DNA of 64,000 bases from an uncultured Gammaproteobacteria bacterium (GTDB taxonomy: Bacteria; Patescibacteriota; Microgenomatia; Daviesbacterales; UBA10151). Within the stretch, counting starts at the first letter, position 1, and every line of letters starts with the position of its first letter. Under the pieces are notes generated by a model, which was not told the DNA's origin, made no database searches, and saw nothing but the letters and a program-made list of their open reading frames with translations. The stretch is taken from the NCBI GenBank assembly GCA_964396715.1, contig CAYNFQ010000001.1, forward strand, positions 21,037 to 85,036. Direction: 5' to 3'. Shown here piece after piece: positions 11,532 to 50,619 of this stretch. The position numbers and the translations under genes were made by a program.

Positions 11532-11553
11532 ACAGATGTTAAACTATCACACC

Positions 11554-15473: not shown

Positions 15474-15528
15474 TCAGCAGAGTGTTGCAAGTTGCATTTT
15501 CCAATACGATTAGTATATCTTGATTGCG

Positions 15529-26480: not shown

Positions 26481-27212
26481 ATGAAAGGTGTCATATTGGC
26501 AGGAGGATTGGGAACCCGTCTTTATCCTCTGACTAAAGTTACAAATAAACACTTATTGCCGGTTTACAACAAACCGATGATTTTTTATCCGATAGATACA
26601 TTGGTCAAAGCAGGCATTACTGATATTTTGGTGGTGACAGGAGGACCTCACTGCGGCCACTTTATGTCTATTTTAAAAAATGGACAGGAGTTGGGAATTA
26701 AACATTTAGAATATGCTTATCAGGAGGATGAAGGTGGTATTGCTCACGCTTTATCCTTGGCTGAAAATTTTGCCGAAGGAGACAGTATTGCGGTAATTTT
26801 GGGTGATAATACTTCTGATTCCGATATTTCGGAGGCTGTTAGTAACTTCAAAGAAGGAGCATTGATATTTTTAAAAGAAGTTCCCGACCCCGAGCGTTTC
26901 GGCATTGCCACTTTTGACCCAAAAGATTCTTCAAAAATAATCAAAATAACGGAAAAGCCAAAAAACCCTGATTCTAAAATGGCAGTGACGGGAGTTTATA
27001 TTTATGATAACAAGGTTTTCGATTTTATCAGAGAAATAAAACCATCGGACAGAGGGGAACTGGAGATTACCGATGTTAATAATAAATATGTAGAAAAGGG
27101 TCAGCTTTCTTGGAGCGAACTGAAAGGTTACTGGTGGGATGCCGGCACCTTTGATACTTTGCTTGAGGCCCAAAACTTTTGGGCAAAGAAGGTAAAGGAG
27201 CAGAGTCAATAA
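26481..27212 (+). CDS. sugar-1-phosphate nucleotidyltransferase, short-form glucose-1-phosphate thymidylyltransferase-like
   Basis: GGLGTRLYPLT G-x-G-T-R motif. 243 aa, lacking the long C-terminal domain. Immediately upstream of rmlB and rmlC. Confidence 0.8.
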   Translation: MKGVILAGGLGTRLYPLTKVTNKHLLPVYNKPMIFYPIDTLVKAGITDILVVTGGPHCGHFMSILKNGQELGIKHLEYAYQEDEGGIAHALSLAENFAEGDSIAVILGDNTSDSDISEAVSNFKEGALIFLKEVPDPERFGIATFDPKDSSKIIKITEKPKNPDSKMAVTGVYIYDNKVFDFIREIKPSDRGELEITDVNNKYVEKGQLSWSELKGYWWDAGTFDTLLEAQNFWAKKVKEQSQ

Positions 27213-28217
27213 ATGAAGCTTTTAGTTACGGGAGGAGCAGGGTTCATAGGCAGTAACTTCATTCATTACTGGATTCAAAATCACCCGGAGGATCAGATTA
27301 TTAATTTTGATGCGCTAACTTATGCAGGTCATTTAGAAAGTCTTAAAGATGTGGCTGATAATCCCAATTATGAGTTTATAAAAGGAGATATAACAAACCC
27401 CGAAGATATTAACAAGGCGATGGAGGGGGTTGGTGTTGTTGTTCATTTTGCTGCAGAGTCCCATGTAGACCGTTCCATAATGAACCCTTCGGTATTTGTC
27501 AGCACAAATGTGCTAGGAACTGCCACACTGCTTAATGCAGCGCTAGAGTTTAAAGTAGATCGATTTCATCATGTGTCAACAGATGAGGTATATGGAGACC
27601 TTGGTCCAAATGATCCTCCTTTTACAGAAGAGTCTCCTTATGCTCCGAGAACTTCTTATGCTGCTTCCAAAGCCGGGTCTGATCATTTAGTCAGAGCGTA
27701 TTTTGAAACTTATGGTTTACCTATAACTATCACAAATTGTGCAAATAACTACGGCCCGTATCATGATCCGGAAAAGTTAATCCCGCGTTTTATTACAAAT
27801 TTGCTAGAGGGCAAAAAGGTTCCTTTAATGGGAAAAGGTGAAAATATCAGGGAATGGCTTCATGTAGATGATCATGCTAGTGCAATTGATCTGGTTTTAC
27901 AAAAAGGCAATGCGGGGGAAATATATCTTATCCAGGGTGAGGAAAAAACCAATTACGAAATAACTCAAATGATTTTAAAAATCTTGGGAATGGATGAGTC
28001 GATGATAGAATATGTTGGTCACAGATTAGGTCATGATTTCCGTTATGCAATTGATGGCAGCAAAATAAAGGCATTGGGTTGGAAAAGAAAACATACTCTT
28101 TTGGAGGATTTACCTAAAGTAATTGAGTGGTATAAAGAAAATGAGTGGTGGTGGAAACCACTTAAAAGTGACAGGCCAAATGTGGATAGAGTAGCCCAAA
28201 AATCTTATGGAAACTAA
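27213..28217 (+). CDS. rfbB: dTDP-glucose 4,6-dehydratase
   Basis: GGAGFIGSNF, a TDEVYG catalytic region and a YAASKA (YxxxK) motif. RmlB-like, 334 aa. Confidence 0.9.
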   Translation: MKLLVTGGAGFIGSNFIHYWIQNHPEDQIINFDALTYAGHLESLKDVADNPNYEFIKGDITNPEDINKAMEGVGVVVHFAAESHVDRSIMNPSVFVSTNVLGTATLLNAALEFKVDRFHHVSTDEVYGDLGPNDPPFTEESPYAPRTSYAASKAGSDHLVRAYFETYGLPITITNCANNYGPYHDPEKLIPRFITNLLEGKKVPLMGKGENIREWLHVDDHASAIDLVLQKGNAGEIYLIQGEEKTNYEITQMILKILGMDESMIEYVGHRLGHDFRYAIDGSKIKALGWKRKHTLLEDLPKVIEWYKENEWWWKPLKSDRPNVDRVAQKSYGN

Positions 28218-28758
28218 ATATATAAAGACTACATCAATCCTGGGACTTTTAATTTTGGAAAGGCCGATTTTCAAAGATGAAAGAGGTTTTTTCAGGGAGC
28301 TTTTTCACCTGGATGAGCTGGAAAAGCTAAGTGGGGTTAAATTTGAGACCATACAAATGAACCACTCACATTCTCTGCCCGGGGTTTTACGGGGGATTCA
28401 TGCCGAGGAGTGGAATAAAATTATTTATCCGGTTTCAGGAGATGTATTTATAGCAATAGTTGATGTAAGAGTTGATTCCCAAACTTTCGGTAAAGTTGAG
28501 ACTTTCAATATTGATAACAATAACAGAGTCGGGCTTTTTATACCCAACGGGCTGGCAAACTCACTTTGTGTTAGCGGAGATACTCCTGCCGATTATATCT
28601 ATCTGGTGGATGCTTACTGGGATGGTACTGACACCAGGGCTATTGCTTTTGATGACCCTGATTTGAAAATTGACTGGCCTGTTATAAATCCGGTTGTTTC
28701 CCAAAGGGACAGCAACAACCCGACACTGCGCCAACTTTTTCCGGATAAATTCAGATAA
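28207..28758 (+). CDS. rfbC: dTDP-4-dehydrorhamnose 3,5-epimerase
   Basis: Cupin fold with RGIHAEEW and FETIQMNHSHS, RmlC-like. An 11-bp overlap couples it to rmlB. Confidence 0.85.
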   Translation: METKYIKTTSILGLLILERPIFKDERGFFRELFHLDELEKLSGVKFETIQMNHSHSLPGVLRGIHAEEWNKIIYPVSGDVFIAIVDVRVDSQTFGKVETFNIDNNNRVGLFIPNGLANSLCVSGDTPADYIYLVDAYWDGTDTRAIAFDDPDLKIDWPVINPVVSQRDSNNPTLRQLFPDKFR

Positions 28759-28762
28759 TTAT

Positions 28763-28791
28763 TGACGCGGAGGCAGCACTCATATATAGTA
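28763..28791 (+). promoter_or_regulatory. sigma70-like promoter TTGACG-N17-TATAGT for gmd, implying a leaderless transcript
   Basis: Hexamers are separated by exactly 17 nt. The -10 box ends 8 nt before the gmd ATG at 28800. Confidence 0.5.
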
Positions 28792-28799
28792 AACAAAAT

Positions 28800-29816
28800 A
28801 TGGCGACTAAAAAAAGAGCGTTTATCACAGGTATAACCGGTCAGGACGGTTCTTATTTAACGGAATTTCTTTTGGACAAAGGTTATGAGGTGGCAGGTTT
28901 GGTAAGGAGAAATGCCGCCCAGGATTTGGGCAACATTAACGATATCAGGGATGAGGTCAGGATTTATTACGGAGATTTGCAATCCCCGGAATCGATTGCT
29001 TTGGCGCTTTTAGATTTTCAGCCTGATGAAATTTACAATATGGCTTCGATGTCTTCCCCTTTAGGGTCTTTCACGGACAAATTAACCTCTATCATGGTGA
29101 CAGGAGTGGGAGCTTTGCATGTATTTGAGCGGGCAAAACAGATTGTCCCGGAGGCAAACATCTATCAGGCTTCAACATCTGAGATGTTTGGGGCACCAAA
29201 GCAGGTGCCGCAAAATGAAGATACGCCTTTTGCTCCGGTCAATCCCTATGCGGCTGCCAAGGAGTTTGCCCACAGGATGGCGCTAATTTCCAGGAAAGAT
29301 AAAAAACAGCCGCAATTTATCTCCTGCGGCATTTTGTTTAACCATGAAAGCCCCAGGCGCGGTTTAAATTTTGTCACCAGAAAAATTACCGCCGCTGTTG
29401 CCTGTATCAAAAACGGCAAAAAAGAAGGAATTCCTTTAAATGAGATTGGAGAGCCGGTTGTCCAAAACGGAAAATTGAAACTGGGAGATTTAGATGCCAA
29501 AAGAGATTGGGGGTATGCGCCTGATTATGTTGAAGCTATGTGGCTGATTTTACAACAGAGTAAGGCAGATGATTTTGTGGTGGCAACCGGAGAGATCCAT
29601 ACGGTTCGTGAATTCGCACAGGAAGCATTTGCGGTAGTGGGTTTAGACTTTGAGGATTATGTTATATCAGATCCGCATTTTATTCCTCCTGTCCAAACAG
29701 GCCCTCTTTGCGGTGACGCCACCAAGGCCAAAAAGGTACTGGGCTGGCAGCCGAAAACCAAATTTAAGGATCTGGTCAGAATTATGGTTCATGCCGATCT
29801 TGCCAAATTTTCTTAA
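28800..29816 (+). CDS. gmd: GDP-mannose 4,6-dehydratase
   Basis: ITGITGQDGSYLTEFLL N-terminus and GMD-type SDR-extended motifs. A TTGACG-N17-TATAGT promoter ends 8 nt before the ATG. Confidence 0.85.
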   Translation: MATKKRAFITGITGQDGSYLTEFLLDKGYEVAGLVRRNAAQDLGNINDIRDEVRIYYGDLQSPESIALALLDFQPDEIYNMASMSSPLGSFTDKLTSIMVTGVGALHVFERAKQIVPEANIYQASTSEMFGAPKQVPQNEDTPFAPVNPYAAAKEFAHRMALISRKDKKQPQFISCGILFNHESPRRGLNFVTRKITAAVACIKNGKKEGIPLNEIGEPVVQNGKLKLGDLDAKRDWGYAPDYVEAMWLILQQSKADDFVVATGEIHTVREFAQEAFAVVGLDFEDYVISDPHFIPPVQTGPLCGDATKAKKVLGWQPKTKFKDLVRIMVHADLAKFS

Positions 29817-31000
29817 TGAAAAAGGTATCAGTTGTTCTTCCCACCTATAACGAAAAAGCCAATATAGAAAAAACCGTTGAAAAAGTGTTTGAGCAGCAGA
29901 AAAATTTACCCGGTTGGCAGATGCACATCATCATTGCCGATGATGTCAGATCTTCTGACGGGACGGAAAAAATTGCCCGAAATTTAGTCAAGAAAAATAA
30001 CAGAATCCATTTTTTAAAGGCTGACCCTGGACTTGGAGTAGGGTTGATTTTGGGGCATCAATATGCAATAGAGAAATTACACCCTGATGTTTTGACCCAA
30101 CTGGATGCAGACGGTCAGGTTGTTTCGGATGTTTTAGTCAGACTGGTTGAAACAATTGAGCAGGGTTATGATCTTGCGATTGGTTCACGTTTTGTGGAGG
30201 GAGGGAAAAATCAGTTAAGTCTTGGCAGGAGACTTTTTACTTACGGTGCTTCTATATTTTTTCGCCTGATGGTGGGGCCCTGGGATATTGGGGAAGTGAC
30301 CAATTCAGCCAGGGCTTTTACGCCTGATCTTTTTGGGAAAATTAATCTTAAAAGATTACCCTGGAGAGAGCCCACTTTTATAGTCCAGCCGGCTTTTTTG
30401 CATGAGGCAATACTAACCGGAGCAAGGTATAAAGAGGTCCCGTTAATTTTTAAAAACAGATTGGAGGGATATTCCAAAAATAAAGTGTTCAACTACACTT
30501 ATGATGTGATTTCATACTGTTTGGATATCAAGCTCCATCAGATGGGAGTCAATATCCCGCTTTTCCGTTTGTCCAGGCGGGCAAAAACACCCGTTAAATT
30601 TGGACTGGTTGGATTTATTGGAACGATCGTTGATTTTTTCTTCTACAAAATATTTATTAATTCCCTGGGTTTGCCGCCGGCTACCTCAAAAGGCATTTCC
30701 ACAGAGATTGCCATTATCAACAATTTTATTTTGAATAATTACTGGACTTTCCGCTACAGAAAAACCAGGACCAACCTTTGGCAAAAATTGGGCATTTTTA
30801 ACCTGGTTTCCTTAGGAGGGTTGGTGATCGGGGTTTTGATAGTCAAATATTTGCATTTATCTTTTGGAGATGGGTTTATTACGGTTTTCGGACGACCCGT
30901 TGCCTACAATAACTTCTACTTTTTTGCCACCATCCCGCCAGTGATGACTTGGAATTTTATGATGAATCATTTGATTACTTGGAAACATCAAGAGGATTAG
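29816..31000 (+). CDS. GT2 polyprenyl-phosphate sugar synthase-like glycosyltransferase (DPM1/GtrB-like) fused to a C-terminal GtrA-like membrane domain
   Basis: VVLPTYNE..N ... ADD ... DADGQ GT-A motifs, then four TM helices with a GtrA-type signature (NNFILNNYWTFRY). Confidence 0.8.
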   Translation: MKKVSVVLPTYNEKANIEKTVEKVFEQQKNLPGWQMHIIIADDVRSSDGTEKIARNLVKKNNRIHFLKADPGLGVGLILGHQYAIEKLHPDVLTQLDADGQVVSDVLVRLVETIEQGYDLAIGSRFVEGGKNQLSLGRRLFTYGASIFFRLMVGPWDIGEVTNSARAFTPDLFGKINLKRLPWREPTFIVQPAFLHEAILTGARYKEVPLIFKNRLEGYSKNKVFNYTYDVISYCLDIKLHQMGVNIPLFRLSRRAKTPVKFGLVGFIGTIVDFFFYKIFINSLGLPPATSKGISTEIAIINNFILNNYWTFRYRKTRTNLWQKLGIFNLVSLGGLVIGVLIVKYLHLSFGDGFITVFGRPVAYNNFYFFATIPPVMTWNFMMNHLITWKHQED

Positions 31001-32187
31001 TTGAAAGGTGCTAGATTTGGTATGGGGGCCGCATTTTGCAGAATAAAATTTTGAGCATAAAGATAAATTGCTAAAAATATCAGGGGTGAAATTATTTTAA
31101 ATTCTTTAGAAGTTAAGACTTTTTCAAATGCAATTAAGACAAATGGGGTGACGGGTAGAACATATCTTGATATATCCCTGTGTGCAACAAAGATTGCGGC
31201 AGCAAGAAAGGTAACCACAAAAAAGGCCATAGGGTATAATTTCTGTTTTATCAGCAGTACTCCACCCAAAAAACCTAAAATAAAAATATAGACTATATCT
31301 TCCAGCCAGGCCTCCCCCACCCAAAATTGGTGTTTGTTAAAAACCTGAAATGGGGGAAAAGTTAGATGAATATTATCTCCGCTTTTAAAATAGGCAAAAA
31401 AGTCTTGGTAAGTGAGTGAATACCAGAAAAATACGGTAAGCAAAGCAAGCGGTATGAGTATAAGTGGTGAGTATGTAACAATTATTCGCATAAGCGAAAC
31501 AAATTGCCCCGCCTTTTGTGCAATGACTTTCCAAATTAAGAAGCAACCTATGGCAATAAACAATAAAATTCCGGGTGGTCTGGTCAGTTGCGCCAAAGCT
31601 CCCATCCCTCCTGCCAAAAGTATATATGAAAACTTACTTGATTGCTCAAATTTCATAAAAAAATAAATGGCAGATAGAGTAAACAGAATAAAGGTTGGTT
31701 CGGAGGATCCTACAGAATGGACAATTAACCACCTGGCAGGCAAGATGAGAAATAATAATGATAAAAACAATGGATGTGAACTAAGCCTGAAGTTGTAAAC
31801 CAGCAGGTAAAATACCCAAGTAGCCAGTATTGTGGAAATTATTGCAACAATCAGCATGGATTTTAAGTAGCCAAAAAATGGGGCCAGAAGGGAGATGAGT
31901 AGAGAGTAACCAGGGAAATGCGAGGCAAAATAATTGGCAGAAAGTCCCATGGGCAAACTGTTTAGAATATCAGGATTATAAAAAGATTTAGCAATTGCAA
32001 TATATTCCAAGCCATCATAGTTTCTATCAATTGTTGAGAATCCTTCTTTGAAGGATAGCCCCCAAAAGTTAGGTAAGGCTAAAATATGCGGAAGCCAGAC
32101 TGCCAAGGTTAAAGTTACCGTACAGACGGCAAGCATAATCAGATCTTTGAATTTATTACTCACTAGTCTATTATATACATTATCCAT
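30997..32187 (-). CDS. polytopic membrane protein, probable GT-C/DUF2029-like glycosyltransferase
   Basis: About 396 aa from the ATG at 32187 (MDNVYNRL), with 10 or more TM helices. Its start codon lies back-to-back with the divergent 32189 gene. The family assignment is tentative. Confidence 0.4.
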   Translation of the reverse strand: MDNVYNRLVSNKFKDLIMLAVCTVTLTLAVWLPHILALPNFWGLSFKEGFSTIDRNYDGLEYIAIAKSFYNPDILNSLPMGLSANYFASHFPGYSLLISLLAPFFGYLKSMLIVAIISTILATWVFYLLVYNFRLSSHPLFLSLLFLILPARWLIVHSVGSSEPTFILFTLSAIYFFMKFEQSSKFSYILLAGGMGALAQLTRPPGILLFIAIGCFLIWKVIAQKAGQFVSLMRIIVTYSPLILIPLALLTVFFWYSLTYQDFFAYFKSGDNIHLTFPPFQVFNKHQFWVGEAWLEDIVYIFILGFLGGVLLIKQKLYPMAFFVVTFLAAAIFVAHRDISRYVLPVTPFVLIAFEKVLTSKEFKIISPLIFLAIYLYAQNFILQNAAPIPNLAPFN

Positions 32188-32188
32188 A

Positions 32189-34345
32189 ATGATTAAAAAT
32201 TTGTCCGTGTTTTTCCCACTATTTAACGAAGCAGGTAATGTGGAAACAACTGTCAAAAAAGCAGTTGAAGTTTTACAAAAATTAAAGCTCGGGTATGAAA
32301 TTATTCTAATTAATGACGGTTCTAAAGATGGGACAAAAAGAGTAGCAGAAGGCCTCTCTAAAGAAAATCCCAGCATTAGGGTTATAAACCATGAGAAAAA
32401 TTTAGGTTATGGTGAGGCGCTCAAGTCGGGTTTTTACAATGCCAAATATGACACGATTGTTTATACGGACGGAGACGGGCAGTTTGATTTCTCCGAAGTG
32501 ACAAAGTTCCTGGATAAGATAGATGATTATGATTTGCTGATCGGATACCGGATCAAAAGGCAAGACCCCTTTTTTAGAATACTTTTTAAAAAAGGCTGGA
32601 CTTTTGCTCTTTGGACCATGTTTGGTTTGACTTTAAAAGACGTAGATTGCGGTTTCAAAATGATAAAAAGAGAAGTCTTGGAAGCAATTCCCCATTTAGA
32701 GTCACAAAGAGGGGCAATGATCAATGCCGAGCTGGCAATTAAGGCCAAAAAAAATGGATTTAGGGTGGGACAAATAGGAGTGGATCACTACCCAAGGTTG
32801 TCCGGAAGGCCAACAGGAGCTAGTTTAAATGTGATTATTAGATCTTTTACTGATTTATTTAAACTATGGTGGAAGCTGAAAGAGCAAAAGTTTCTTTTCA
32901 TTTTGCTGGCAGGGATTTTACTTTTGGCTGCATTTTTGCGATTTTACAAAATTGATCAGTATATGCTTTTTTTGGGGGATGAAGGCAGGGATGCTTTAAT
33001 TGTGAAAGAGATTGTTGAAGGTCGGCATTTTCCCTTAATCGGCCCGCCCACATCGGTGGGAAATATTTACCTGGGCCCTCTATATTACTATATGATGGCA
33101 ATCCCCATGTTTATATTTAATTTAAATCCGGTTTCTGCAGCCGGAATGAATGCAGCAATTGGAGTTTTAACAGTATTTCTGGTTTATATCTTAGGGAAAC
33201 TATGGTTTGGCAGGGAGGCGGGCCTGATCTCTTCTTTGTTATATGCAGTCTCTCCGGTTACTATAAACTATTCCAACTTTTCCTGGAATCCCAACCCTAC
33301 CCCCTTTTTTGCCTTGCTGGTCATACTTTCTCTTGACAAATTTCATAAGTTAGGAAATTACAAATGGCTGATTTTAACAGCAGCATCAGCAGCAGCTGCT
33401 TTGCAAATGCATTATCTGGCCCTGATTTTACTGCCGGTCTTAGTGGTTGGTTGGCTTAAAGAATTATTGGCAAAAAAAAGCCCCCTTTTTTGGGGAGGAA
33501 CAATTTTAGCGCTGCTTACTTTTTTTCTTTTCATGTCGCCTCTTTTATTGTTTGATTTAAGGCACAATTTTTTAAATTTTAAAGCCATAACTGCGCTTTT
33601 TTTTGGTCAAGATACATCAGTTGGATTTAATATTGTCGATTCTTTACAAAGAATTCCTCAAATTTTTAGTCAAAGTCTCATCGGCAGATATTTAACAGCA
33701 GAAAACCCGGTTTTAACTTTTATTGTTTCAATACTTATACTAATACCGCTAATTTATACCGGTTACCTGATGTATCAAAAAAGGTCGTTTAACTACGGGT
33801 TCTGGATATTAAATAACTGGCTTTTAATAGGTATTTTGGGATTGTCATTTTATAAACAGCAAATCTTTGATCATTATTTAAACTTTCTAAATCCGGCGCC
33901 TTTTTTACTTTTTGGCTCTTTGGTAAAACTTAAGAAAATATTTTTGGCGCCAGTTTTGGTTTTAGTTGTTGTTTTAACATTTGTAAATTTAGCTAAAAAC
34001 CCCCTAAACTTGCCTCCGAATAAACAACTGGAAAGAAGCCAGCAGGTTGCCAAGTTTGTGATTGAAAAAAGTCATAGAGAGGATTTTAATTTTGCCCTGC
34101 TTGCGGAAAATAATTATGACTCAGCTTATATTTTTTATCTGGAAAAATATGGCCACAAGCCAAAAATAGTGCCGCAGGAAAAAACTACCCAGCTTTTTGT
34201 AGTTTGTGAGGATCAAATTTGTGATCCCACTCACAGCGCAAAGTACGAAGTGGCCGCATTCGGTATGTCCAAAATTGACTGGATGGAAGAATATTTTGGA
34301 GTTAAAATATACAGATTGATTCCTAATCCGTCAGGAAGACCATGA
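32189..34345 (+). CDS. fusion protein: N-terminal GT2 (Dol-P/Und-P sugar synthase-like) plus C-terminal GT-C membrane glycosyltransferase domain (paralog family A)
   Basis: N-terminus FPLFNEAGNVE...INDGSKDGT...TDGDGQ (GT-A). After about 230 aa comes a polytopic domain with the loop motif LGDEGRDALIVKE...IGPPTSVGNIYLGPLYYYMM shared with the 10059, 15529 and 17012 genes. The ATG at 32189 is preferred. Confidence 0.7.
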   Translation: MIKNLSVFFPLFNEAGNVETTVKKAVEVLQKLKLGYEIILINDGSKDGTKRVAEGLSKENPSIRVINHEKNLGYGEALKSGFYNAKYDTIVYTDGDGQFDFSEVTKFLDKIDDYDLLIGYRIKRQDPFFRILFKKGWTFALWTMFGLTLKDVDCGFKMIKREVLEAIPHLESQRGAMINAELAIKAKKNGFRVGQIGVDHYPRLSGRPTGASLNVIIRSFTDLFKLWWKLKEQKFLFILLAGILLLAAFLRFYKIDQYMLFLGDEGRDALIVKEIVEGRHFPLIGPPTSVGNIYLGPLYYYMMAIPMFIFNLNPVSAAGMNAAIGVLTVFLVYILGKLWFGREAGLISSLLYAVSPVTINYSNFSWNPNPTPFFALLVILSLDKFHKLGNYKWLILTAASAAAALQMHYLALILLPVLVVGWLKELLAKKSPLFWGGTILALLTFFLFMSPLLLFDLRHNFLNFKAITALFFGQDTSVGFNIVDSLQRIPQIFSQSLIGRYLTAENPVLTFIVSILILIPLIYTGYLMYQKRSFNYGFWILNNWLLIGILGLSFYKQQIFDHYLNFLNPAPFLLFGSLVKLKKIFLAPVLVLVVVLTFVNLAKNPLNLPPNKQLERSQQVAKFVIEKSHREDFNFALLAENNYDSAYIFYLEKYGHKPKIVPQEKTTQLFVVCEDQICDPTHSAKYEVAAFGMSKIDWMEEYFGVKIYRLIPNPSGRP

Positions 34346-35100
34346 AGAAATTATCTGTTGTCATACCTGCATATAATGAGGAAAGAAACCTTAAAAGGGG
34401 AGTGTTGGATGCTGTTGAAGATTTTTTGGAAAAAAGCGGACTGGAATATGAGGTGATGGTAGTGGATGATGGTTCAACAGATGCCACACGCGAGGTTGTG
34501 AAGGGGTATGTTGCAAAAAACAACAACTTCAGACTGATTGAAAATTCTCACGGAGGAAAAGCCATGGCTGTCATGACCGGCATGCTTAAGGCTAAAGGTG
34601 AGATAGTTTTATTTACAGATATGGATCAGGCCACCCCAATTGATCAGTGGAATAAATTTCTGCCAAAATTTGAGGAAGGTCTGCCTGCCGGTAGGCAGGG
34701 CTATGATGTTGTGATTGGCTCCCGATCTGGCAGGAAGGGGGCGCCTATGGTAAGACAACTGGCTGCCTGGGGGTTTTCATTTTTGCGGGGGATAATTTTA
34801 GGACTGCCTTTTTCCGATACCCAATGCGGTTTTAAGGCTTTTAATAGAGAAGCAATTGAAAAAATTATTCCCAAAATAAAAAGTGAATGGGGGGTGGTGC
34901 ATTTTAAGGGAGGAGCAGTCAATGCCGGCTTTGATGTGGAATTATTATACTTGGCCAAAAAATACGGCTTTAAGATTGCAGAGGTGGAGGTGGTATGGAA
35001 TTATGTGGATACGGAAAGAGTACAGGTCATAAAAGACGCCCTGGCAGCAATTTATGACATGTTAAGAATTAGAATTAATGATTTAAAGGGGAAATATTAA
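34342..35100 (+). CDS. GT2 glycosyltransferase, Dol-P-glucose/mannose synthase-like (soluble)
   Basis: VVIPAYNEERN ... VVDDGSTD ... TDMDQ motifs. 252 aa with no TM domain. A 4-bp overlap couples it to the upstream fusion gene. Confidence 0.8.
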   Translation: MKKLSVVIPAYNEERNLKRGVLDAVEDFLEKSGLEYEVMVVDDGSTDATREVVKGYVAKNNNFRLIENSHGGKAMAVMTGMLKAKGEIVLFTDMDQATPIDQWNKFLPKFEEGLPAGRQGYDVVIGSRSGRKGAPMVRQLAAWGFSFLRGIILGLPFSDTQCGFKAFNREAIEKIIPKIKSEWGVVHFKGGAVNAGFDVELLYLAKKYGFKIAEVEVVWNYVDTERVQVIKDALAAIYDMLRIRINDLKGKY

Positions 35101-35150: not shown

Positions 35151-36344
35151 ATGTATGATAATCTGATTGCACAAAAAATTGCTCAACAATACCAACAGAA
35201 TCCCTTGACGGATTTTGCGAGTGTAATATCAACAACGCCATTAAACGCATTAAATTTAAATTGGCGAGAGAGAGATTTGCCTGAAATAATAAGAACCAAA
35301 CATGTTCATCGCCTGCATCCCTATCTTGGCAAGTTTATTCCACAATTGGTAGAGATTTTTTTGCGGAAATATAAACCAGGGCTTGTTTATGATCCATTTG
35401 TGGGTAGTGGTACAACAATCGTTGAAGCAAATACTCTAGGAATAGATTCTATCGGGACAGATGTTTCTGCTTTTAATGTTCTTCTTTCGAAGGTAAAAAC
35501 TGCGAAATATGATATTTCTCTTCTAGAAAAAGAAATTTATGACATCCTTGATCGCTTAAATACATATAAAAATAAATTTTATAAAGATGAAAAAGTAAAT
35601 AAGTTATTTACCATCAATAATGAGTATTTAAATGGCTGGTTCGCCCCGCAAACCCTAAAAGAACTTCTTTGTTACCTACGTTTAATCAAAGATTATACAT
35701 ATCAAGATTTACTAAAAATTATCTTATCTCGCTCGGCTCGTTCAGCACGCCTGGTTACTCATTATGATCTGGATTTCCCCAAAAAACCACAAAGAGGACA
35801 ATATTTTTGCTATAAACACAACCGAACATGCCAACCAGTGGGCGAAGCATATAAATTTTTATCACGCTATACAATTGACACGCTTAATAGAATTAAAGAA
35901 TTTTCAAAAATTAGAACACAAGCAAAAGTTGTCGTGAATCATGCTGATTCCCGAGAGGTAAAATTGCCAACAGGTATTGATATGGTTTTCACCTCACCGC
36001 CCTATATTGGTCTCATTGACTATCATGATCAACATAAGTATGCATATGAACTATTAGGATTACAAAATAATGAAACACGAGAGATAGGCGCTGCAAAAAG
36101 GGGTCAATCTGACCAAGCGAAGAAAGAATATATAAAAGGGGTAAACGAAGTACTACTCCATACTAGAGATTATATGACTAAAAATGGAATAGTTTTAATT
36201 GTAATAAATGATAGATATAATTTATATAAACCAGAAAGCGTAGGTTTCAAATCAATCGGAAAAGTTGACCGTCATGTAAATCGTCGTACAGGCCGTCGAG
36301 AAAGTGCATTTTATGAAAGCATTTTAATTTGGCAAAAAATATGA
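35151..36344 (+). CDS. DNA amino-methyltransferase (N6-adenine or N4-cytosine), alpha-class architecture
   Basis: Motif I DPFVGSGTT near aa 80 and motif IV FTSPPY near aa 285, with a target-recognition-like region between them. AT-rich codon usage. Confidence 0.85.
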   Translation: MYDNLIAQKIAQQYQQNPLTDFASVISTTPLNALNLNWRERDLPEIIRTKHVHRLHPYLGKFIPQLVEIFLRKYKPGLVYDPFVGSGTTIVEANTLGIDSIGTDVSAFNVLLSKVKTAKYDISLLEKEIYDILDRLNTYKNKFYKDEKVNKLFTINNEYLNGWFAPQTLKELLCYLRLIKDYTYQDLLKIILSRSARSARLVTHYDLDFPKKPQRGQYFCYKHNRTCQPVGEAYKFLSRYTIDTLNRIKEFSKIRTQAKVVVNHADSREVKLPTGIDMVFTSPPYIGLIDYHDQHKYAYELLGLQNNETREIGAAKRGQSDQAKKEYIKGVNEVLLHTRDYMTKNGIVLIVINDRYNLYKPESVGFKSIGKVDRHVNRRTGRRESAFYESILIWQKI

Positions 36345-37177
36345 CTGACGCACAAGAGATGAAAAAAGCAATTCAATCTGTCATTAAGTTAATGATGGAT
36401 AGAGTTATGCAGAATGTTTTGGTTATAGATCCCTTTATTAAGGAAAATCATAAAGCTAAGAAACCATTGTATGCTGCCCTGGTACCAGACGAAATATTTA
36501 AGGGCTCACATTTTGAAAGGAAGTTTGTTACTCCTTTTGGTAAAGCTTGGCAAAAACTAGCAATTGTAGCAGCTGATAAGGGTTTAGGACACGGTGTTAA
36601 TGAATATAGCATAGTAGGTAAAATAAACGCTGAGCGACTGCGTCGGATACAACAAGTGTTAAATTTACTTGAGTATTCTGAAAAAGGAAAGAAAAGAATA
36701 AAACCTAATTGGAAGAAAGAGTTGAAGTATATTTTAGAGGGAAAAAGTAAAGAATTAATCCCCACAACTGTTATTTGTGATGTTTATGTTGAGGATAAGA
36801 AGAGCGGTAAAAAGTACGCCTTTGAATTAAAAGCGCCATTACCAAATAGCGATCAAACTAAAGTAAGCAAAGAAAAGTTACTAAAATTATATAGCATGGA
36901 TCCTGTTCAAATTAATGGAGCTTATTATGCTTTGCCGTATAATCCATATGGTAAAAGAATGAATTATTCGTGGAGTTTTCCGGCTCGATGGTTCGATATG
37001 AAAAATGATGAGGTTGTTTTGATCGGAGATGAGTTTTGGGAAAAAATTGGAGGCGTAGGAACATATAAAGCCTTTATCAATGCGGTAAATGAAATTGGAA
37101 AAGAATATAAGGATCGAATATATAGAGAATTTTTAGGTATCGAACCACCAACTAATTTAGATGAGGGTAAGCTCTAG
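36341..37177 (+). CDS. candidate Type II restriction endonuclease (PD-(D/E)xK-like)
   Basis: Its ATGA start overlaps the methyltransferase stop. A PD-(D/E)xK-like arrangement (ICDVYVEDKK...FELKAP) is present. No other family is recognised. Its position directly after a solitary-looking methyltransferase is typical of a cognate nuclease. Confidence 0.45.
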   Translation: MTDAQEMKKAIQSVIKLMMDRVMQNVLVIDPFIKENHKAKKPLYAALVPDEIFKGSHFERKFVTPFGKAWQKLAIVAADKGLGHGVNEYSIVGKINAERLRRIQQVLNLLEYSEKGKKRIKPNWKKELKYILEGKSKELIPTTVICDVYVEDKKSGKKYAFELKAPLPNSDQTKVSKEKLLKLYSMDPVQINGAYYALPYNPYGKRMNYSWSFPARWFDMKNDEVVLIGDEFWEKIGGVGTYKAFINAVNEIGKEYKDRIYREFLGIEPPTNLDEGKL

Positions 37178-38077: not shown

Positions 38078-38326
38078 ATGTCCAAAAAAGCGTTTGTGGT
38101 TATTTTAGTCTTAAGTGTGGTGGTAACTTATGGAATGGCATTTGTAGATGATGTAATTAATCCTACTAAGAATCCAACCGGTTTACCTTTTAGTTTTGCA
38201 TCTTTTAATTTTCTAGGTGGATCAAATGATAATCTTATGCTAGTTTTAGATATAACCTTTTGGTTTGTGGTTATTTGGGGAATCTGGAAAGCTATCTCTT
38301 ATTTCTCTGGTCGTGGGGGACGATAA
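38078..38326 (+). CDS. small membrane protein
   Basis: 82 aa with two hydrophobic helices. Confidence 0.35.
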   Translation: MSKKAFVVILVLSVVVTYGMAFVDDVINPTKNPTGLPFSFASFNFLGGSNDNLMLVLDITFWFVVIWGIWKAISYFSGRGGR

Positions 38327-40835
38327 CTTCAAAACTGGATAAAGAGGTATTTCCTGCTAAGTCCGTAGCAAATATTTTTATTATGTATTTTCTCCCATCT
38401 TTATCATCACCTTTTCTTGATGCCTCCAGTTTAATAGCTTGATTTATATTTGTTTGGCTTCCAAGTGTTACAGAAGATTCAATCAAGTCATATTCGTCTT
38501 CCACGATAATTTTTGTTAGATACGGATTATCATCAGCGATAGTACCTGTAATATTCACATCAACCATTTTATTATTCGGTGGCCAGATACTCTTTGGACT
38601 AACATCTAATGAAATTGTCGGGGGAGTGTAATCATAATTTGCATTTCCTTCCAAAATGCTGAACTTTTCAACATTGGCATCTATGGTTCCATTCCCGTCT
38701 TCATCCAGTTTAATAACCGGCGATTGGTCTGAATTTGTATCAAAAGTAGTCTCCGCTTTAGTATTTTCTGTCAAAGGAATTTCTTTATAAAGGATAGTTT
38801 TCGAATTTTCATCATTTTCAAATTTCCTGATTTTAAAATCAAAACTGCCCTGATTTGTTGCTTCAAATTTAACATCATAAACTCCATTTATGGGAAGATA
38901 GATAAATTTAGCATCACCCAAAGTATCATAAGAGCTTCCGGGAATATTAGTTTCAAATCCATCCGTTGTTGGGCCTGTATGATTGCCGCTTGAGTCATAA
39001 ACATGGATATCAACAGGAGAGTGAACAGACAGAGTATTGCCTGCAAGTTTGAAAGGTTGAGTGGAAACTCCGCCAGGCAACTGATTATTACTATCTAAAA
39101 TATTTTTAACTAAATTTAATGCAGGTCCATTGGTAACTAAATTGCCGTGTTTCTGATTAGTGTAAAGGGTTTGTTGAGAACCAAAGGAGGCGCTAAGTAG
39201 CGGTACTGTTTCATCGCCATTTATTATACGCATATCTTTATGAATTCCTGCTATTCCAAATAAAGAAGTGTCTTTAATTTCAATAATTTGTCCTAAGGTA
39301 GGTTGTCCTGACCCAGCGATAACCACAACGTCCACACCATTTGTAGTAGATAACGTAGAATCTATTGAATGAAAAGTTTCACTTGGGTTAAATAAAGCAG
39401 TATTATGTCCAACAATTGTTAAGAGATTCTTAATCTGATTATAATTCAGGGCTCCGTTTTCTGTTCTATATGGATAGGGATGTTGAGCATCCTCATTTGA
39501 GTAAAAGTTAAAATAAGATTGACTTGGGGCCAATTGAAAACCACTGATCATATTTTGAATAACATCATTCATTTCAGATGGAGCTAAGGATAAACAATAA
39601 GGACCAAATGGGTATTTAAGACAGCCGCCATACCTTAGTACTTTTAAAAATTCTGTAGCTCCCAAATGTGGAGTTCCCAGGGTAAATAATTTTCTGACAT
39701 TCTGGGCGCGGTTTACATCAGCTATGTAGTTTCTGGCAACCAGGCCTCCCATGGAGTGGGCTACAATATCTACTTTCGTACTGCCTGTTTGACTCTTAAT
39801 CTGGTTAATTTTATTATCAAGCTCGGTTTTAGTTGTACTAATATCTTTTCTCCAATCATACGGAAACACAAAAAGATCCTCATTAAGGATATATCCATTG
39901 GCAGTGAAAAAATCTATGGCACCTTGATATGCCCTTGCCAGCAAATTGTTTGTTAACCCTATGTGTGCTTCACTGGTTATGCCATCATCTCTCATCCGTA
40001 ATACATCAAAATAATCATCATTCCCGGGATTTGCAGCTTCATCTTCATTTACCCAAACTTTTTCTCCTGATGGATAAATATGGTTAAAAGTCCCTCCATG
40101 CCCGTCCGTAGCATTCCAGATAGTATCCTCTTCAACTTTAAGTTCCGACCCTCCAATTCCGGGAATTAAAATTAAGGGAGTTTTGAGAGAAGGTGGGGGA
40201 GCAAGAGCTGTTAGCTTGATATTATCAAATCTGACATAAATATTACTGATATCCCCTGTCCAGTAACTTAAAGTCAGAACCCCTTTTTTAACTAAAGTTT
40301 CAGAATCTGTAATATCAAAAATTAAAGTGTCCCCTATCCAAGCTTTGATATTTTCATCTTTTAGCTCAACTTTTAGCTGATACCATTTTTGATTAATTAG
40401 AGGATAAGAGTGGGTATCAAAAAGCGTAGTAACTATCCCGCTTTGATTTTTTCTTAAAATAATCTCCGGGGTATTATATAAACCGGTTCCATGTCTAAAA
40501 TTAATCTCATAAGAATCACCATCAGGAGTATATCTGAACCCTACTCCATGATCTATACCGGATTGAGCATTAAAGTCTAGCTCAATTCTGTAGTTATCCC
40601 ATTGTGAAGACCCATTACTTATTCTTCCTCCAAAAGCCCTGCCTGATTTTGATCCGACTAGATTGCCATTGTTGATATACCAGTTTCCAGACTGTATTGT
40701 CCAGCCATCCAAGTTCCCATCACTAAAATCATCAAAAAGAAGGATGTCTCCTTCTGCAGCCAAAGCAGGCAGGCTAAAGAGTGAAATCAGGATAAACAAT
40801 AAGGCTGCTTTTAAAAATTTAAATAATCTGGGCAT
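38292..40835 (-). CDS. secreted multidomain protein: N-terminal DUF1080/LamG-like lectin domain, LCAT/PGAP1-like alpha/beta-hydrolase lipase domain, and C-terminal Ig-like beta domains
   Basis: Signal peptide, then a WTIQSGNWYINNGNLVG...YRIELDF beta-sandwich, then PGIGGSEL ... FPYDWRKD ... AHSMGG (nucleophile elbow) ... GTPHLG. These are diagnostic of the LCAT-like lipase/acyltransferase family. Confidence 0.7.
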   Translation of the reverse strand: MPRLFKFLKAALLFILISLFSLPALAAEGDILLFDDFSDGNLDGWTIQSGNWYINNGNLVGSKSGRAFGGRISNGSSQWDNYRIELDFNAQSGIDHGVGFRYTPDGDSYEINFRHGTGLYNTPEIILRKNQSGIVTTLFDTHSYPLINQKWYQLKVELKDENIKAWIGDTLIFDITDSETLVKKGVLTLSYWTGDISNIYVRFDNIKLTALAPPPSLKTPLILIPGIGGSELKVEEDTIWNATDGHGGTFNHIYPSGEKVWVNEDEAANPGNDDYFDVLRMRDDGITSEAHIGLTNNLLARAYQGAIDFFTANGYILNEDLFVFPYDWRKDISTTKTELDNKINQIKSQTGSTKVDIVAHSMGGLVARNYIADVNRAQNVRKLFTLGTPHLGATEFLKVLRYGGCLKYPFGPYCLSLAPSEMNDVIQNMISGFQLAPSQSYFNFYSNEDAQHPYPYRTENGALNYNQIKNLLTIVGHNTALFNPSETFHSIDSTLSTTNGVDVVVIAGSGQPTLGQIIEIKDTSLFGIAGIHKDMRIINGDETVPLLSASFGSQQTLYTNQKHGNLVTNGPALNLVKNILDSNNQLPGGVSTQPFKLAGNTLSVHSPVDIHVYDSSGNHTGPTTDGFETNIPGSSYDTLGDAKFIYLPINGVYDVKFEATNQGSFDFKIRKFENDENSKTILYKEIPLTENTKAETTFDTNSDQSPVIKLDEDGNGTIDANVEKFSILEGNANYDYTPPTISLDVSPKSIWPPNNKMVDVNITGTIADDNPYLTKIIVEDEYDLIESSVTLGSQTNINQAIKLEASRKGDDKDGRKYIIKIFATDLAGNTSLSSFEVIVPHDQRNKR

Positions 40836-40898: not shown

Positions 40899-42407
40899 AT
40901 GGTGAATTTAGCCCTTAAATACAAAAAAGAGATTTTCATAATTCTTATTCTTTTTGCCTTTTATTTTCTCTTTAGGCTTCCAAATTTAACTTTGCAGCCT
41001 ATTTTTGCGGATGAGGCCATTTATATCAGATGGGCCCAGGTGATGAGATCAGAACCAACCTTGCGCTTTTTACCTTTATCCGATGGCAAAACACCTCTGT
41101 TCATGTGGGCTATGATCCCCCTTTTTAAAATATTTGAAGACCCTCTTTTTGCAGGAAGATTTTTATCTGTTATGAGCGGGTTTGTCACTTTGATAGGCGT
41201 GTTGGCATTAGCATGGAGAGTGTTTGGCATAAAAACTGCCCTGTGGGCATCTTTTATTTATGTAGTGGTGCCCTACACTGTTTTTTTTGACAGAATGGCT
41301 TTGGTTGATGCTATGCTTTCAGCCTTTACTGTTTGGGCTTTATTTTTTGCAACACTTCTTGCTCAAAAAGTCAGGTTGGATTTGGCCATGATCTTGGGAT
41401 TTATTCTCGGAGGAGCATGGCTCACCAAAACTCCGGCTGTTTTAAATCTTTTTCTTTTGCCAGCATCCATACTTGCTTTTAAAAAATCAAAAGAAGATAA
41501 ATACTCATCTTTAAAACTGTTTTTCTTTTGGCTGATTGCCATATTTATTGCTCTTTTGATGTATAACGCCTTAAGATTGGGGCCTAATTTTCACCTTTTA
41601 TCTTCCAGAAATGCTGATTATGTGTTTTCTCCGGTTGAACTTTTAGGCAGGCCCCTGGATCCTTTTATTCCGCATTTTCGGGATATTTCAGACTGGTTTC
41701 CCAAACTTTTGACTTGGCCTGTTTTAATTTTAGGGGGGACAGGGGTAATTTGGGTGATTAAGGAAAAGAATAAATTAGGGTTTGTTGTTTTGCTTTGGGC
41801 TTTGATACCGCTACTTTTGGAAATGGCTTTCCTTCGTACATTTACCGCCAGATATTTGTTGCCTTCCATACCTTTGATTTTAATTTTTGCAGGATATGGT
41901 ATAAGTAAAATTTCAAATTTCAAATTTCAAATTTCAAATAATTTTTTAATACTAATTCTTTCAATAGTTTTAACCGTTCCGGCGCTTCATTTTAATTATC
42001 AGCTTTTAACCAGCTCTCCGCCCGATTCTTTACCAAAAGAAGAAAGAAAAGGTTATTTTGAAGGGTGGACTGCAGGATATGGTTTAAAAGAAATAGCTCA
42101 ATTTTTAACAGAACAAAACAAAACTCAAAAAGTGGTGGTGGGTACTGAGGGGTTTTTCGGCACCCTGCCTGACGGCTTGTATATTTACCTTGATAAAGCG
42201 GGAATTTCCATAATAGGTTCTCATGCCACAATTTCAGCCCAAATAAGAAATGCCGCCAAAGACAATCTGACTTTTTTTGTTGGTAATAAAAATAATTTAG
42301 AGGGAGCGATAGATAATGTTAGACTAATCAAAGAATATCCCAAGGCAAAAGCAGTTGATGGTAAACAAGATTCAACTGTTTTGTACCAAGTTTTACCAAA
42401 AGATTAA
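40899..42407 (+). CDS. PMT/ArnT-like GT-C glycosyltransferase (GT39/GT83-like, PMT_2)
   Basis: First-loop FADEAIYIRWAQ (DE motif), 11 or more TM helices and a C-terminal soluble domain. Contains an in-frame 4x heptanucleotide repeat. Confidence 0.7.
   Translation: MVNLALKYKKEIFIILILFAFYFLFRLPNLTLQPIFADEAIYIRWAQVMRSEPTLRFLPLSDGKTPLFMWAMIPLFKIFEDPLFAGRFLSVMSGFVTLIGVLALAWRVFGIKTALWASFIYVVVPYTVFFDRMALVDAMLSAFTVWALFFATLLAQKVRLDLAMILGFILGGAWLTKTPAVLNLFLLPASILAFKKSKEDKYSSLKLFFFWLIAIFIALLMYNALRLGPNFHLLSSRNADYVFSPVELLGRPLDPFIPHFRDISDWFPKLLTWPVLILGGTGVIWVIKEKNKLGFVVLLWALIPLLLEMAFLRTFTARYLLPSIPLILIFAGYGISKISNFKFQISNNFLILILSIVLTVPALHFNYQLLTSSPPDSLPKEERKGYFEGWTAGYGLKEIAQFLTEQNKTQKVVVGTEGFFGTLPDGLYIYLDKAGISIIGSHATISAQIRNAAKDNLTFFVGNKNNLEGAIDNVRLIKEYPKAKAVDGKQDSTVLYQVLPKD
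41921..41948. repeat. perfect tandem heptanucleotide repeat (TTTCAAA) x4 inside a GT-C gene
   Basis: 28 bp, four exact 7-bp units, read directly from the sequence. It encodes SNFKFQISN within a predicted TM/loop region. Confidence 0.8.
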
Positions 42408-42413
42408 TGATTT

Positions 42414-50200: not shown

Positions 50201-50619
50201 TAACTAACCTGCCACATGCCTTTGTTGGTCAAGAAGAATTTGAAGCACTGGAATTTTTGAGAGCGCAAAATGAGGGAATAATTTTAACTTATCCTTATGA
50301 TCCGAAATTAAAAAACAAAATTCTTGAACCCTGGCCTTTATTTGTTTACGACAGCACCGCCTATGTTTCTGCCCTTGCAAACAAAGCAGTTTATTTGGAA
50401 GATGAGGGGCAAAATCAAATTCTTTTGACGGATTATAAAAAAAGGTTGGTTGCCGCTAAGGATTTTTTTGTAAGACCAGATACGGAATTTTTGAAAAACA
50501 ACAATATCAGTTATATTTATTTGCCGAAAATAGCGGACATTAAACTGGATGAAGATTCTCTTTCGGTTGTGAAGATTTTTGAAAATGATGAAGCGTTAAT
50601 TTACGAGGTAAACAGATGA
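47227..50619 (+). CDS. large membrane protein: N-terminal secreted domain of about 480 aa (possible polysaccharide-deacetylase-like fold) plus a C-terminal polytopic domain (paralog family C)
   Basis: Signal peptide. The TM domain shares blocks with the 50616 gene (HDGLWHVSL, LGGESAFWANQS, FKAYAGILIL, SPFWFIHSMIDSPDR, FLIFLIGNLGTRAF) and a conserved C-terminal soluble tail. Confidence 0.5.
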   Translation: MKKLAVFLFFLLISFLNPKLLFAQSPQSFVSVVNPVRGEDFWSLENQTVVTAVKGQAEILREADIPATWLIRFDALDKKEIIDVLSKLLSHEKGLFLEVTPTWAKAAGVAYRASQNWHDAGSAFLTGYERGEREKLIDAAFDRFKEVFGSYPVSVGAWWIDSYSLDYMQAKYGITAALIVSDQYTTDNYQIWGQYFGVPYYPSRKNVLHPAQSQDEKLPVVVMQWAARDPFNGYGDGVEESTYSVQANDYLDYHKLDTNYFSSLIDIYTKQPFNKFGHIVVGLENSYSWDKYGQEYRRQIEVLADKARQGQFQIVSMKGFTVWYQKSFPDFSSEHLIMADDPLGSFKKAVWFMNPFFRAGFFINQDGAVFRDIRQYVEGEEEICFQKRCDSVNFATFSTRVLDEVTYGQKWVIDEGKISDFKVSKSGEKFIIDYLNEAGKKRIIEFLPRDISVDGKISSIDGVILDATKHTLTQKEKQPFLQSGPFQWSLASIFSKTGAFLVFLLIGCIVPGLVLINKILQDSSFYQKVTLSTILGFVLLTLLFYSLGLFKLQKLVFIYLLINAFLLAKNYKLFAKLKLKPNWGVLGIIFAGVVFQQLPTFKNGLSFPYGLGFWGPNTHDGLWHVSLINQLVKSVPPNNPIFAQDLLKNYHYFYDLLVAVTHYVSGIPILDLLFRFYPVIFSVLLGTGSYFLIQSLTKQKLAQFFGLYLVYFAGSFGWIVEYIKFKHLGGESAFWANQSISFNLNPPFAISMLLIIAIFQLLPNVKFRWFSISVLTVLAGSLLAFKAYAGILILTTLFIVGVLKRSLLYLAVFLTSSILSLMLFLTNFTIGQKLLIFSPFWFIHSMIDSPDRVGWARLSLARVAGAEGGNWFKFAAAESISFLIFLIGNLGTRAFALLALPKITHIVRREDYLSLLIFSSLAFILPVFFIQAGNPWNTIQFTYYFLYISALIGGLVFARIALILPKILALPLVAIFIVITPINSWATANGYLTNLPHAFVGQEEFEALEFLRAQNEGIILTYPYDPKLKNKILEPWPLFVYDSTAYVSALANKAVYLEDEGQNQILLTDYKKRLVAAKDFFVRPDTEFLKNNNISYIYLPKIADIKLDEDSLSVVKIFENDEALIYEVNR

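Follow-up and report, generated by a model that had tools for sequence, protein, structure and literature searches.

The GtrB/GtrA/GtrC, CsbB/GtcA/YfhO, YkcC/YkcB, ArnC/ArnE-F/ArnT and PgfS/PgfM systems combine a cytoplasmic polyprenyl-phosphate sugar synthase of glycosyltransferase family 2 (GT2) with a GT-C transferase acting on the outside. Herein, we analyzed a gene that is predicted to encode both types of enzyme as a single protein. It lies at positions 32189–34345 on the forward strand of a 64,000-nucleotide (nt) stretch of contig CAYNFQ010000001.1 (assembly GCA_964396715.1, positions 21,037 to 85,036), referred to below as the window, from a genome placed by GTDB in the Patescibacteriota. 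Both halves of the 718-residue product have the same fold classes and motifs as the components of these three-component systems, and a GtrA-type domain is likewise present in the locus. However, the synthase and the GT-C enzyme are on one polypeptide here, the synthase has no transmembrane (TM) helices of its own, and the sole nearby GtrA domain is fused to another GT2.

For the synthase half, the closest described proteins are GtrB of Synechocystis (sll0501) and ArnC. They share with it the GT-A domain, the DxD motif, the arginines equivalent to GtrB R122 and R200, and two juxtamembrane (JM) helices, and JM2 of GtrB has likewise been described as extending its TM1 at the N-terminal end. The fusion lacks the two parts that build the GtrB tetramer, the TM stalk of two helices and the C-terminal β-hairpin, and its JM2-like helix continues into TM1 of the GT-C half; the identity of GtrB and ArnC to the GT2 half is only about 20–25%, and the equivalog cut-offs are missed. 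The other half resembles ArnT and further PMT_2/GT39-GT83-like GT-C enzymes in the predicted fold, the PMT_2 domain, the acidic motif after TM1, and the soluble C-terminal domain, whereas its identity to ArnT is 13% and no sequence-level match to any solved GT-C structure was obtained, even with a profile.

Other synthases are known to depend on, or to be joined to, a membrane protein. Ppm1 (Rv2051c) of M. tuberculosis is a bi-domain protein composed of Lnt and a polyprenol-P-mannose synthase, which are encoded by adjacent separate genes in other species (PMC3460810). As in our fusion, a DPM1-type catalytic domain without TM segments is linked to a polytopic membrane protein and is fused or split depending on the species, but the membrane partner of Ppm1 is an N-terminal N-acyltransferase and not a GT-C enzyme that uses the product. 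GacI and WpsA have no TM segments and each depend on a small membrane partner, GacJ and WpsB, respectively; GacJ–GacI fusions also occur in nature (PMC10821137). Here again, a TM-less synthase relies on a membrane partner and natural fusions are known, whereas the partner is small and non-catalytic, with three TM helices. In Haloarcula hispanica, Agl22 and Agl23 are separate proteins that, going by the title of their 2020 source paper, are reportedly tied to the synthesis and use of lipid-linked intermediates. Agl23 is a reported flippase: in proteoliposomes, the purified protein moved a lipid-linked oligosaccharide across the membrane, and Agl23 also rescued a yeast rft1 deletion (PMC11182771). 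Among the NCBIfam models, that of Agl23 (TIGR03663) comes closest to the membrane domain of our fusion, whose score is far under the cut-off. As judged from sequence and predicted fold, the fusion passes the broad class tests for polyprenyl-phosphate glycosyltransferases (PI-GT) and for GT-C enzymes and fails all named equivalog and Agl23 cut-offs.

A GT2 half and a GT-C half in one reading frame

Pfam found both domains on one open reading frame (ORF) of 718 residues, as the preliminary description of this DNA had proposed. Glycos_transf_2 (PF00535) covered residues 6–166 (E 3.2e-27, 95.9 bits against a cut-off of 23.3), and PMT_2 (PF13231) covered residues 297–445 (E 3.1e-10, 40.9 bits against a cut-off of 26.1). 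The border between the two domains, at residues ~231–233, corresponds to nt ~32880, where the junction had been expected, and the three motifs quoted for the first domain were located at residues 9–19 (FPLFNEAGNVE), 43–49 (DGSKDGT), and 94–98 (DGDGQ). In this window of ~36% G+C, the longest frame of the ORF runs from a TTG at 32048 to 34345, and the ATG at 32189 gives the 718-residue product. The TTG start was rejected in favor of the ATG because the homologues begin at the ATG-equivalent position, with the consensus MxIxNLSVFFP. The product is identical to MBI3103924.1, for which the NCBI name is just “glycosyltransferase”, and the exact protein matches trace the window to a metagenome-assembled genome (MAG) of Candidatus Daviesbacteria (Microgenomates, Patescibacteria/CPR). 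The AlphaFold2 (AF2) model that had been suggested as a check was built from 38 homologues, the same number in which residue conservation was counted; it was confident, with a mean predicted local distance difference test score (pLDDT) of 85.3, a predicted TM-score (pTM) of 0.81, and no segment below a pLDDT of 50.

A homologue search covering 5.8 billion proteins returned at least 120 homologues with 61–77% identity and lengths of 689–740 residues, and all those listed carry PF00535 and PF13231. One genome per GTDB species was then scanned with two peptide patterns located inside the GT2 half only, and the ORFs at the resulting 79 loci were scored with hidden Markov models (HMMs) of each half of the fusion. 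In 39 of the 79 loci, a single ORF without interruption contained the two domains at full length, and every Daviesbacteria-like genome in which both domains were fully readable (39/39) had the fused form. The fusion is not peculiar to this genome, and the earlier call to look for it in relatives is answered by 39 species-level genomes. Because the same single ORF is conserved in these genomes, a read-through or assembly artefact is excluded. Split orthologues with overlapping frames do occur in other lineages, and a one-base error could join them; but the in-frame junction, with its consensus WWKLKDQKxLF, recurs in 39 species-level assemblies, independent of one another, and in at least 120 protein clusters, and an assembly or frameshift error that joined two separate genes has virtually no probability.

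The GT2 half (residues 1–232, 32189–32884, forward strand) was assigned to the PI-GT class from PF00535 and from its PDB and Foldseek matches, and it is predicted to be a cytoplasmic GT-A domain. Its only strong sequence matches in the PDB were ArnC (9hwj, 6e-16) and GtrB sll0501 (5eke, 7e-16). When the predicted model of the fusion was compared with the PDB by Foldseek, ranks 1–25 were taken by ArnC, GtrB, and Pyrococcus DPMS (5mlz). The nearest NCBIfam models, namely ArnC, PgfS, Dol-P-hexose transferase, AglJ, and PpgS, are all polyprenyl-phosphate sugar synthases, and the NCBIfam comparison gave no membership in a named equivalog, with best scores of 42–67 bits against cut-offs of 325–529.

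Five residues, D94, D96, R122, D157, and R200, were singled out in the GtrB structure (PMC4728340). In the HMMER alignment, D94, D96, R122, and R200 correspond to D94, D96, R121, and R203 of the fusion, all four of which are invariant in the 38 homologues. The DxD motif D94-G-D96 (32468–32476, forward strand) is kept, as are the arginines equivalent to those that bind the acceptor phosphate in GtrB. D157, the catalytic acid of GtrB, falls opposite G155, and an invariant D151-V-D153-C-G-F-K lies 2–4 residues off. The AF2 model has a helix of residues 128–145 at the position of GtrB JM1 and a second, JM2-like helix of residues 213–230 (32825–32878, forward strand), which is strongly amphipathic (hydrophobic moment 0.67) and leads to TM1 at residues 234–252. 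The PI-GT pattern of two juxtamembrane helices and a TM segment was found in this way, and the TM segment is TM1 of the GT-C half. The N-terminal ~230 residues had been called a DPM1/GtrB-type GT-A domain, which agrees with the top matches by sequence and fold and with the retained GtrB ligand residues. The sequence evidence supports membership of the PI-GT class, and the sugar-loading activity itself is predicted.

The GT-C half spans residues 233–718. Its polytopic membrane domain (residues 233–602, 32885–33994, forward strand), which starts with TM1, was assigned from PMT_2, from the helical bundle of the AF2 model, and from the Foldseek match to ArnT. ArnT (5EZM/5F15) was the best solved structural match of the predicted model (Foldseek E ~3e-8, probability 1.0), with a TM-score of 0.54–0.56 normalised to ArnT over ~582 aligned columns. 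It was followed in rank by archaeal AglB and by the oligosaccharyltransferase complex with its catalytic subunit STT3.

GT-C enzymes carry an acidic motif in the first loop, at the position after TM1. The fusion has G263-D264-E265-G266-R267-D268 (32975–32992, forward strand) in the loop after TM1, 11 residues past the helix, as a putative GT-C catalytic motif. Within the fused family, five of the six positions (G, D, G, R, and D) never vary, and the E is almost as constant; in 42 stand-alone GT-C relatives (32–57% identity) the same five residues are invariant and E is the consensus. A C-terminal α/β domain (residues 613–712, 34025–34324, forward strand), delimited by the AF2 secondary structure and predicted to be extracytoplasmic, carries the pair C673/C678, which is invariant in the fused family and nearly invariant in the stand-alone relatives; such a pair fits an outside location. 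By analogy with the ArnT-like fold of the model, both the GDEGRD loop and the C-terminal domain would be on the extracytoplasmic side. With PMT_2 over its cut-off, the fold match to ArnT, and the invariant acidic motif after TM1, the description of the C-terminal ~480 residues as a polytopic GT-C domain stands. Its placement in a “paralog family A” is only loosely supported, as the nearest GT-C paralogs in the window reached 42–88 bits against the domain HMM.

Fused, split and rearranged relatives

Among the homologues, the fused junction reads DLxRLWWKLKDQKxLF. In 11 more distant Microgenomates loci (three titled Woesebacteria, one Shapirobacteria, and seven with a generic MAG title), the orthologues are encoded by two separate genes, and the cut coincides exactly with the domain border; one such pair is located at 6001–6696 and 6693–8231 of L043. 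The GT2 gene of these loci ends directly past the amphipathic helix, with DLFKLWxKL(R/K) followed by the stop codon. Start and stop codons overlap in 9 of the 11: the GT-C ATG overlaps the GT2 stop as ATGA in four, and in five it precedes the stop by 4–20 nt in a different frame. In the other two loci, the ATG comes immediately after the stop (L042) or ~30 nt downstream (L055). The fusion in the window keeps an equivalent out-of-frame ATG within its Leu-Trp codons, which opens a dead frame of 33 codons. As this ATG is still present, a one-base frame change suffices to interconvert the fused and split forms, and the fusion probably arose when such a change affected the short overlap between a GT2 gene and a GT-C gene that were translationally coupled.

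The orthologous GT-C was fused (39) or adjacent (11) in all 50 informative loci with a closely related GT2. This constant presence is an unbiased result because the loci were retrieved through the GT2 half alone. Four further loci with a close GT2 were kept outside the 50: in L044 and L045 the contig end cuts off a fusion, L056 stops shortly past the GT2, and L058 was readable neither way. No close GT2 orthologue clearly lacking a GT-C was found among the loci with enough sequence. Locus L040 was also set apart. It is a 1827-nt contig labelled Candidatus Buchananbacteria that carries a 64%-identical copy of the fusion, broken inside the GT2 at residue ~160, and the break is probably a frameshift error on a short, possibly mis-binned contig.

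Both modules are also common as separate proteins. A cluster search covering 1.84 billion cluster representatives gave stand-alone GT-C proteins of ~490–530 residues with up to 57% identity, and stand-alone GT2 proteins of ~230–250 residues, without a TM segment, with up to 59% identity. Full-length fusions with identities down to 33–42% occur in Beckwithbacteria and other Microgenomates, where they are named “hypothetical” or “glycosyltransferase”.

The modules are joined in other orders as well. Two Ktedonobacteria MAGs encode GtrA, GT2, PMT_2, and YkcB_C in one ORF of 1145–1149 residues (L079:5338-8784 and L070:456-3890), and by their predicted domains each of these ORFs unites the complete set of parts of a three-component glycosylation system in a single chain; in the related loci L061, L063, and L067, the YkcB-like GT-C is a separate adjacent gene. 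Related modules are also present in Ktedonobacter racemifer and Dictyobacter, both of which are in culture. Another protein of 923 residues combines GT2, GtrA, and PMT_2 (P0248), and one of 673 residues has the reversed order PMT_2 and GT2 (P0231). Among P0251, P0197, and P0268, one joins GT2 to a PMT_2/TMEM260-like domain with a long C-terminus (1032 residues) and two join GT2 to 400–550 unassigned residues. P0231 was considered as a counterpart of the GT2 paralog encoded downstream of the fusion and was rejected, as it is 30% identical to that paralog versus 37% to the GT2 of the fusion. Given a cytoplasmic N-terminus of the GT-C and cytoplasmic ends of GtrA, the topology of these families, all module orders are compatible with a cytoplasmic GT2. 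The fused and split orthologues, along with the further fusions that contain GtrA, support a functional link between GT2 and GT-C.

Gene neighborhood of the fusion

A second soluble GT2 begins at 34342, with a 4-bp overlap, as had been noted: its start codon and the TGA stop of the fusion are combined in ATGA. This gene (34342–35100, forward strand; 252 residues, MBI3103923.1) was classified by Pfam, encodes a PI-GT-like protein without TM segments, and is 34% identical to the GT2 of the fusion, with the same motifs kept. It directly follows the fusion in 37 of the 39 fused loci and comes after an intervening second GT-C in the other two. A second GT-C paralog is located between the fusion or split GT-C and the downstream GT2 in L038, L039, L043, and L057, and with spacers in L048, L049, and L051. 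The order GT2a, GT-Ca, GT-Cb, GT2b hints at a separate GT-C partner for the second GT2.

Upstream, a gene of 394 codons (29816–31000, forward strand; MBI3103926.1) encodes a GT2 fused to a GtrA/DPMS_TM domain, as detected by Pfam and by the GtrA HMM scan. It holds the only GtrA-like domain in the window, and a counterpart lies upstream of the fusion in 36 of the 39 fused loci and is also present in the genome of loci L001–L003. Between it and the fusion lies a divergent stand-alone GT-C gene on the reverse strand (30997–32187; PMT_2 at 30.2 bits in Pfam), which NCBI calls a 388-residue “glycosyltransferase family 39 protein”. The starts of this gene and of the fusion are 1 nt apart if its ATG at 32187 is used and ~25 nt apart with the NCBI call (32163), so that the promoters must lie inside the neighboring coding sequence. 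In L001, the gap between the divergent starts is 31 nt, and the gene at the syntenic position has 392 codons and no listed Pfam match.

Farther upstream, nucleotide-sugar genes occupy 26481–29816 (forward strand): by NCBIfam they are rmlA-like, rmlB, rmlC-like, and gmd-like, with only rmlB passing its cut-off (TIGR01181, 448.8 bits). The same cluster is found in L001–L003, and the whole arrangement from the nucleotide-sugar genes to the second GT2 is kept in that genome, whose fusion protein is 61% identical to ours. L001 has an rmlD-like gene (296 residues, 1915–2805) between rmlC and the gmd-like gene, and none is present at 28758–28800 of the window. With no rmlD at the syntenic place, the dTDP-rhamnose pathway may be incomplete, or rmlD may be located elsewhere. 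An epimerase-family gene at 12318–13244 (reverse strand) gave a weak RmlD_sub_bind match.

Directly after the second GT2, overlapping genes for an N6/N4 DNA methylase and a TdeIII-type restriction endonuclease (35151–37177) look like an inserted restriction-modification cassette. At this position, L001 has a DUF3175 gene and more GT-C genes. Genes of the GT-C type are numerous in the window as a whole, with at least 10 besides the fusion in 64 kb versus only three PI-GT-like GT2 genes. They are located at 10059–11531 (reverse strand), 15520–18508, 40899–45756, 52598–56499, and 59340–64000 and are of the PMT_2, PTPS_related, YfhO, and GT87 types. The same glycosylation island contains two overlapping ORFs, 47227–50619 (1130 residues) and 50616–52601 (661 residues), with no Pfam match at E <=0.001. 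The gene at 38292–40835 (reverse strand, 847 residues) encodes an N-terminal hydrophobic, signal-peptide-like segment with 3-keto-disaccharide-hydrolase-like and LCAT/PGAP1-like lipase domains, and 11536–12306 (forward strand) encodes an F420-0:gamma-glutamyl ligase family protein (PF01996, E 3e-32), in what is a small Patescibacteria genome. As to the naming of the records, L004, L007, L008, L011, L017, and others are titled “uncultured Gammaproteobacteria bacterium” and carry the Daviesbacteria-type locus with 56–66% identity and the same synteny; these titles are evidently generic or wrong labels.

Proposed mechanism and its significance

From the sequence and model evidence, we consider it moderately likely that the fusion is a bifunctional membrane glycosyltransferase, which would bring two of the three parts of a GtrB/GtrA/GT-C-type extracytoplasmic system together on one chain. 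Judging by homology, the cytoplasmic GT2 domain would move a monosaccharide from a nucleotide sugar to polyprenyl phosphate. As this GT2 has no TM anchor of its own and its JM2-like helix runs straight into TM1, TM1 would serve as the anchor of the synthase, in place of the TM stalk of GtrB, DPM3, or GacJ. The location of the GT2 N-terminal to TM1 is compatible with the expected cytoplasmic N-terminus of the GT-C domain. The polyprenyl-P-sugar would then be flipped, for which the neighboring GT2–GtrA protein, another factor, or the fusion itself are candidates. On the outside, the ArnT-like GT-C domain would pass the sugar to an extracytoplasmic acceptor by using the D264/E265 loop motif and the C-terminal domain. 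On this reading, the sugar-lipid made by the GT2 half would be the donor for the GT-C half of the same chain.

Several observations weigh against this proposal. Because the two active sites would be on opposite membrane faces, direct channelling is impossible without a flip, and the GtrA HMM scan of all ORFs in the 64-kb window found no stand-alone GtrA. The donor could equally be used by at least 10 other GT-C-like genes in the window. The side assigned to the C-terminal domain hangs on the number of TM segments and was placed by fold likeness, and a crude hydropathy scan of the fusion, too coarse for a TM count, gave just seven strongly hydrophobic segments. A profile of the 42 GT-C relatives searched against all PDB sequences yielded no GT-C match at E <=1, only chance matches such as TRPM2. 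Ppm1 shows that the membrane protein joined to a synthase need not be a consumer of what the synthase makes. Finally, the NCBIfam model nearest to the membrane domain is that of a reported flippase, Agl23. TIGR03663 matched residues 241–409 with 37.8 bits; its scores were 37.8–39.7 bits against a cut-off of 126.25, over only model positions 5–164 of 435, and it also matched 36 of the 42 stand-alone relatives; the cut-off for membership of the Agl23 family was missed by the GT-C half.

This last match raises the question of whether the GT-C-like domain, also or instead, translocates the polyprenyl-P-sugar, so that the donor feeds the nearby stand-alone GT-C enzymes. We regard such a synthase–flippase as quite unlikely. 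The reported activity of purified Agl23 (PMC11182771) speaks for it, as do the best NCBIfam match of the membrane domain (37.8 bits), the matches of the stand-alone relatives to this model, and the combination of abundant GT-C-like genes with the lack of a stand-alone GtrA; GT2–GtrA fusions, which are of the GT2–flippase type, are also common, and one sits 1.2 kb upstream. However, the score is far under the 126-bit cut-off and the match is limited to the N-terminal conserved GT-C module, the invariant acidic motif and the conserved Cys pair are more in keeping with a catalytic GT-C than with a flippase alone, a transferase, ArnT, gave the best match among solved structures, and the triple fusions with GtrA and GT-C suggest different jobs for the two membrane modules. 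A related and likewise rather improbable possibility, drawn by analogy with Agl23, is a self-sufficient machine in which the GT-C-like domain or the domain interface also carries the polyprenyl-P-sugar across and a GtrA-type flippase would be unneeded; the GtrA–GT2–GT-C proteins of Ktedonobacteria would then be an alternative single-chain solution with an explicit flippase module. It is unlikely, though less so, that the GT-C half is the membrane anchor and activator of the TM-less GT2 and otherwise works as a transferase in its own right, with a donor that does not come specifically from the attached GT2; the link would then be physical or regulatory, with no substrate relay. Ppm1 joins its synthase to Lnt, which is no consumer of the product, GacI and WpsA need unrelated small membrane partners, the GT2 module is fused to several different membrane domains, and a second TM-less GT2 directly follows the fusion, all of which can be read as mere anchoring. 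Yet a GT-C recurs as the partner in independent lineages, with various domain orders and at times together with GtrA, and the orthologues are adjacent or fused in 50 of 50 informative loci. Such a pattern, always fused or adjacent and in several orders, is expected for consecutive steps of one pathway. Finally, the GT2 half might act on a non-lipid or already glycosylated acceptor instead of polyprenyl phosphate, which is very unlikely: every NCBIfam equivalog score is far under its cut-off and generic GT2 enzymes turn up lower in the sequence and fold match lists, but the top matches in both are all polyprenyl-P glycosyltransferases, and the phosphate-binding arginines and juxtamembrane helices typical of the class are conserved. 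Taken together, the outer-face motif, the C-terminal domain, and the triple fusions of GtrA and GT-C favor the transferase over the flippase and anchor readings, and a dual role is compatible with them.

In the open-access literature that was searched, including for GT-C enzymes of Patescibacteria, we found no description of natural GT2–GT-C or GtrA–GT2–GT-C fusions; the matches for “fusion” were engineered tags or GacJ–GacI. The reviews and papers on three-component systems that we searched made no mention of a fused, bifunctional, or single-polypeptide form in this sense. The architecture is visible in the databases, where it has no functional name. It is a domain-architecture variant of a known pathway, with no new biochemical principle or kind of system, and a fusion of pathway neighbors would come as no great surprise to a specialist.

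How undecaprenyl-phosphate (Und-P)-sugars, dolichyl-phosphate (Dol-P)-Man, and Dol-P-Glc get from the synthase across the membrane to the GT-C enzyme that uses them is still poorly understood. The single-chain GT2–GT-C, GtrA–GT2–GT-C, and GT2–GtrA–GT-C proteins fix the stoichiometry and proximity of the components, which makes them convenient for cryo-EM and liposome reconstitution. If the two-domain protein alone glycosylated an acceptor on the far side, a separate flippase would be dispensable; if it could not, the triple fusions would show what must be added. The series of fused and split forms and the single-chain three-module proteins are useful handles on the flipping step. The fused/split pattern is also genomic evidence that TM-less synthases pair with particular GT-C enzymes, and this pairing could help to find the donors used by the GT-C enzymes of Patescibacteria, whose repertoires are very large and uncharacterised.

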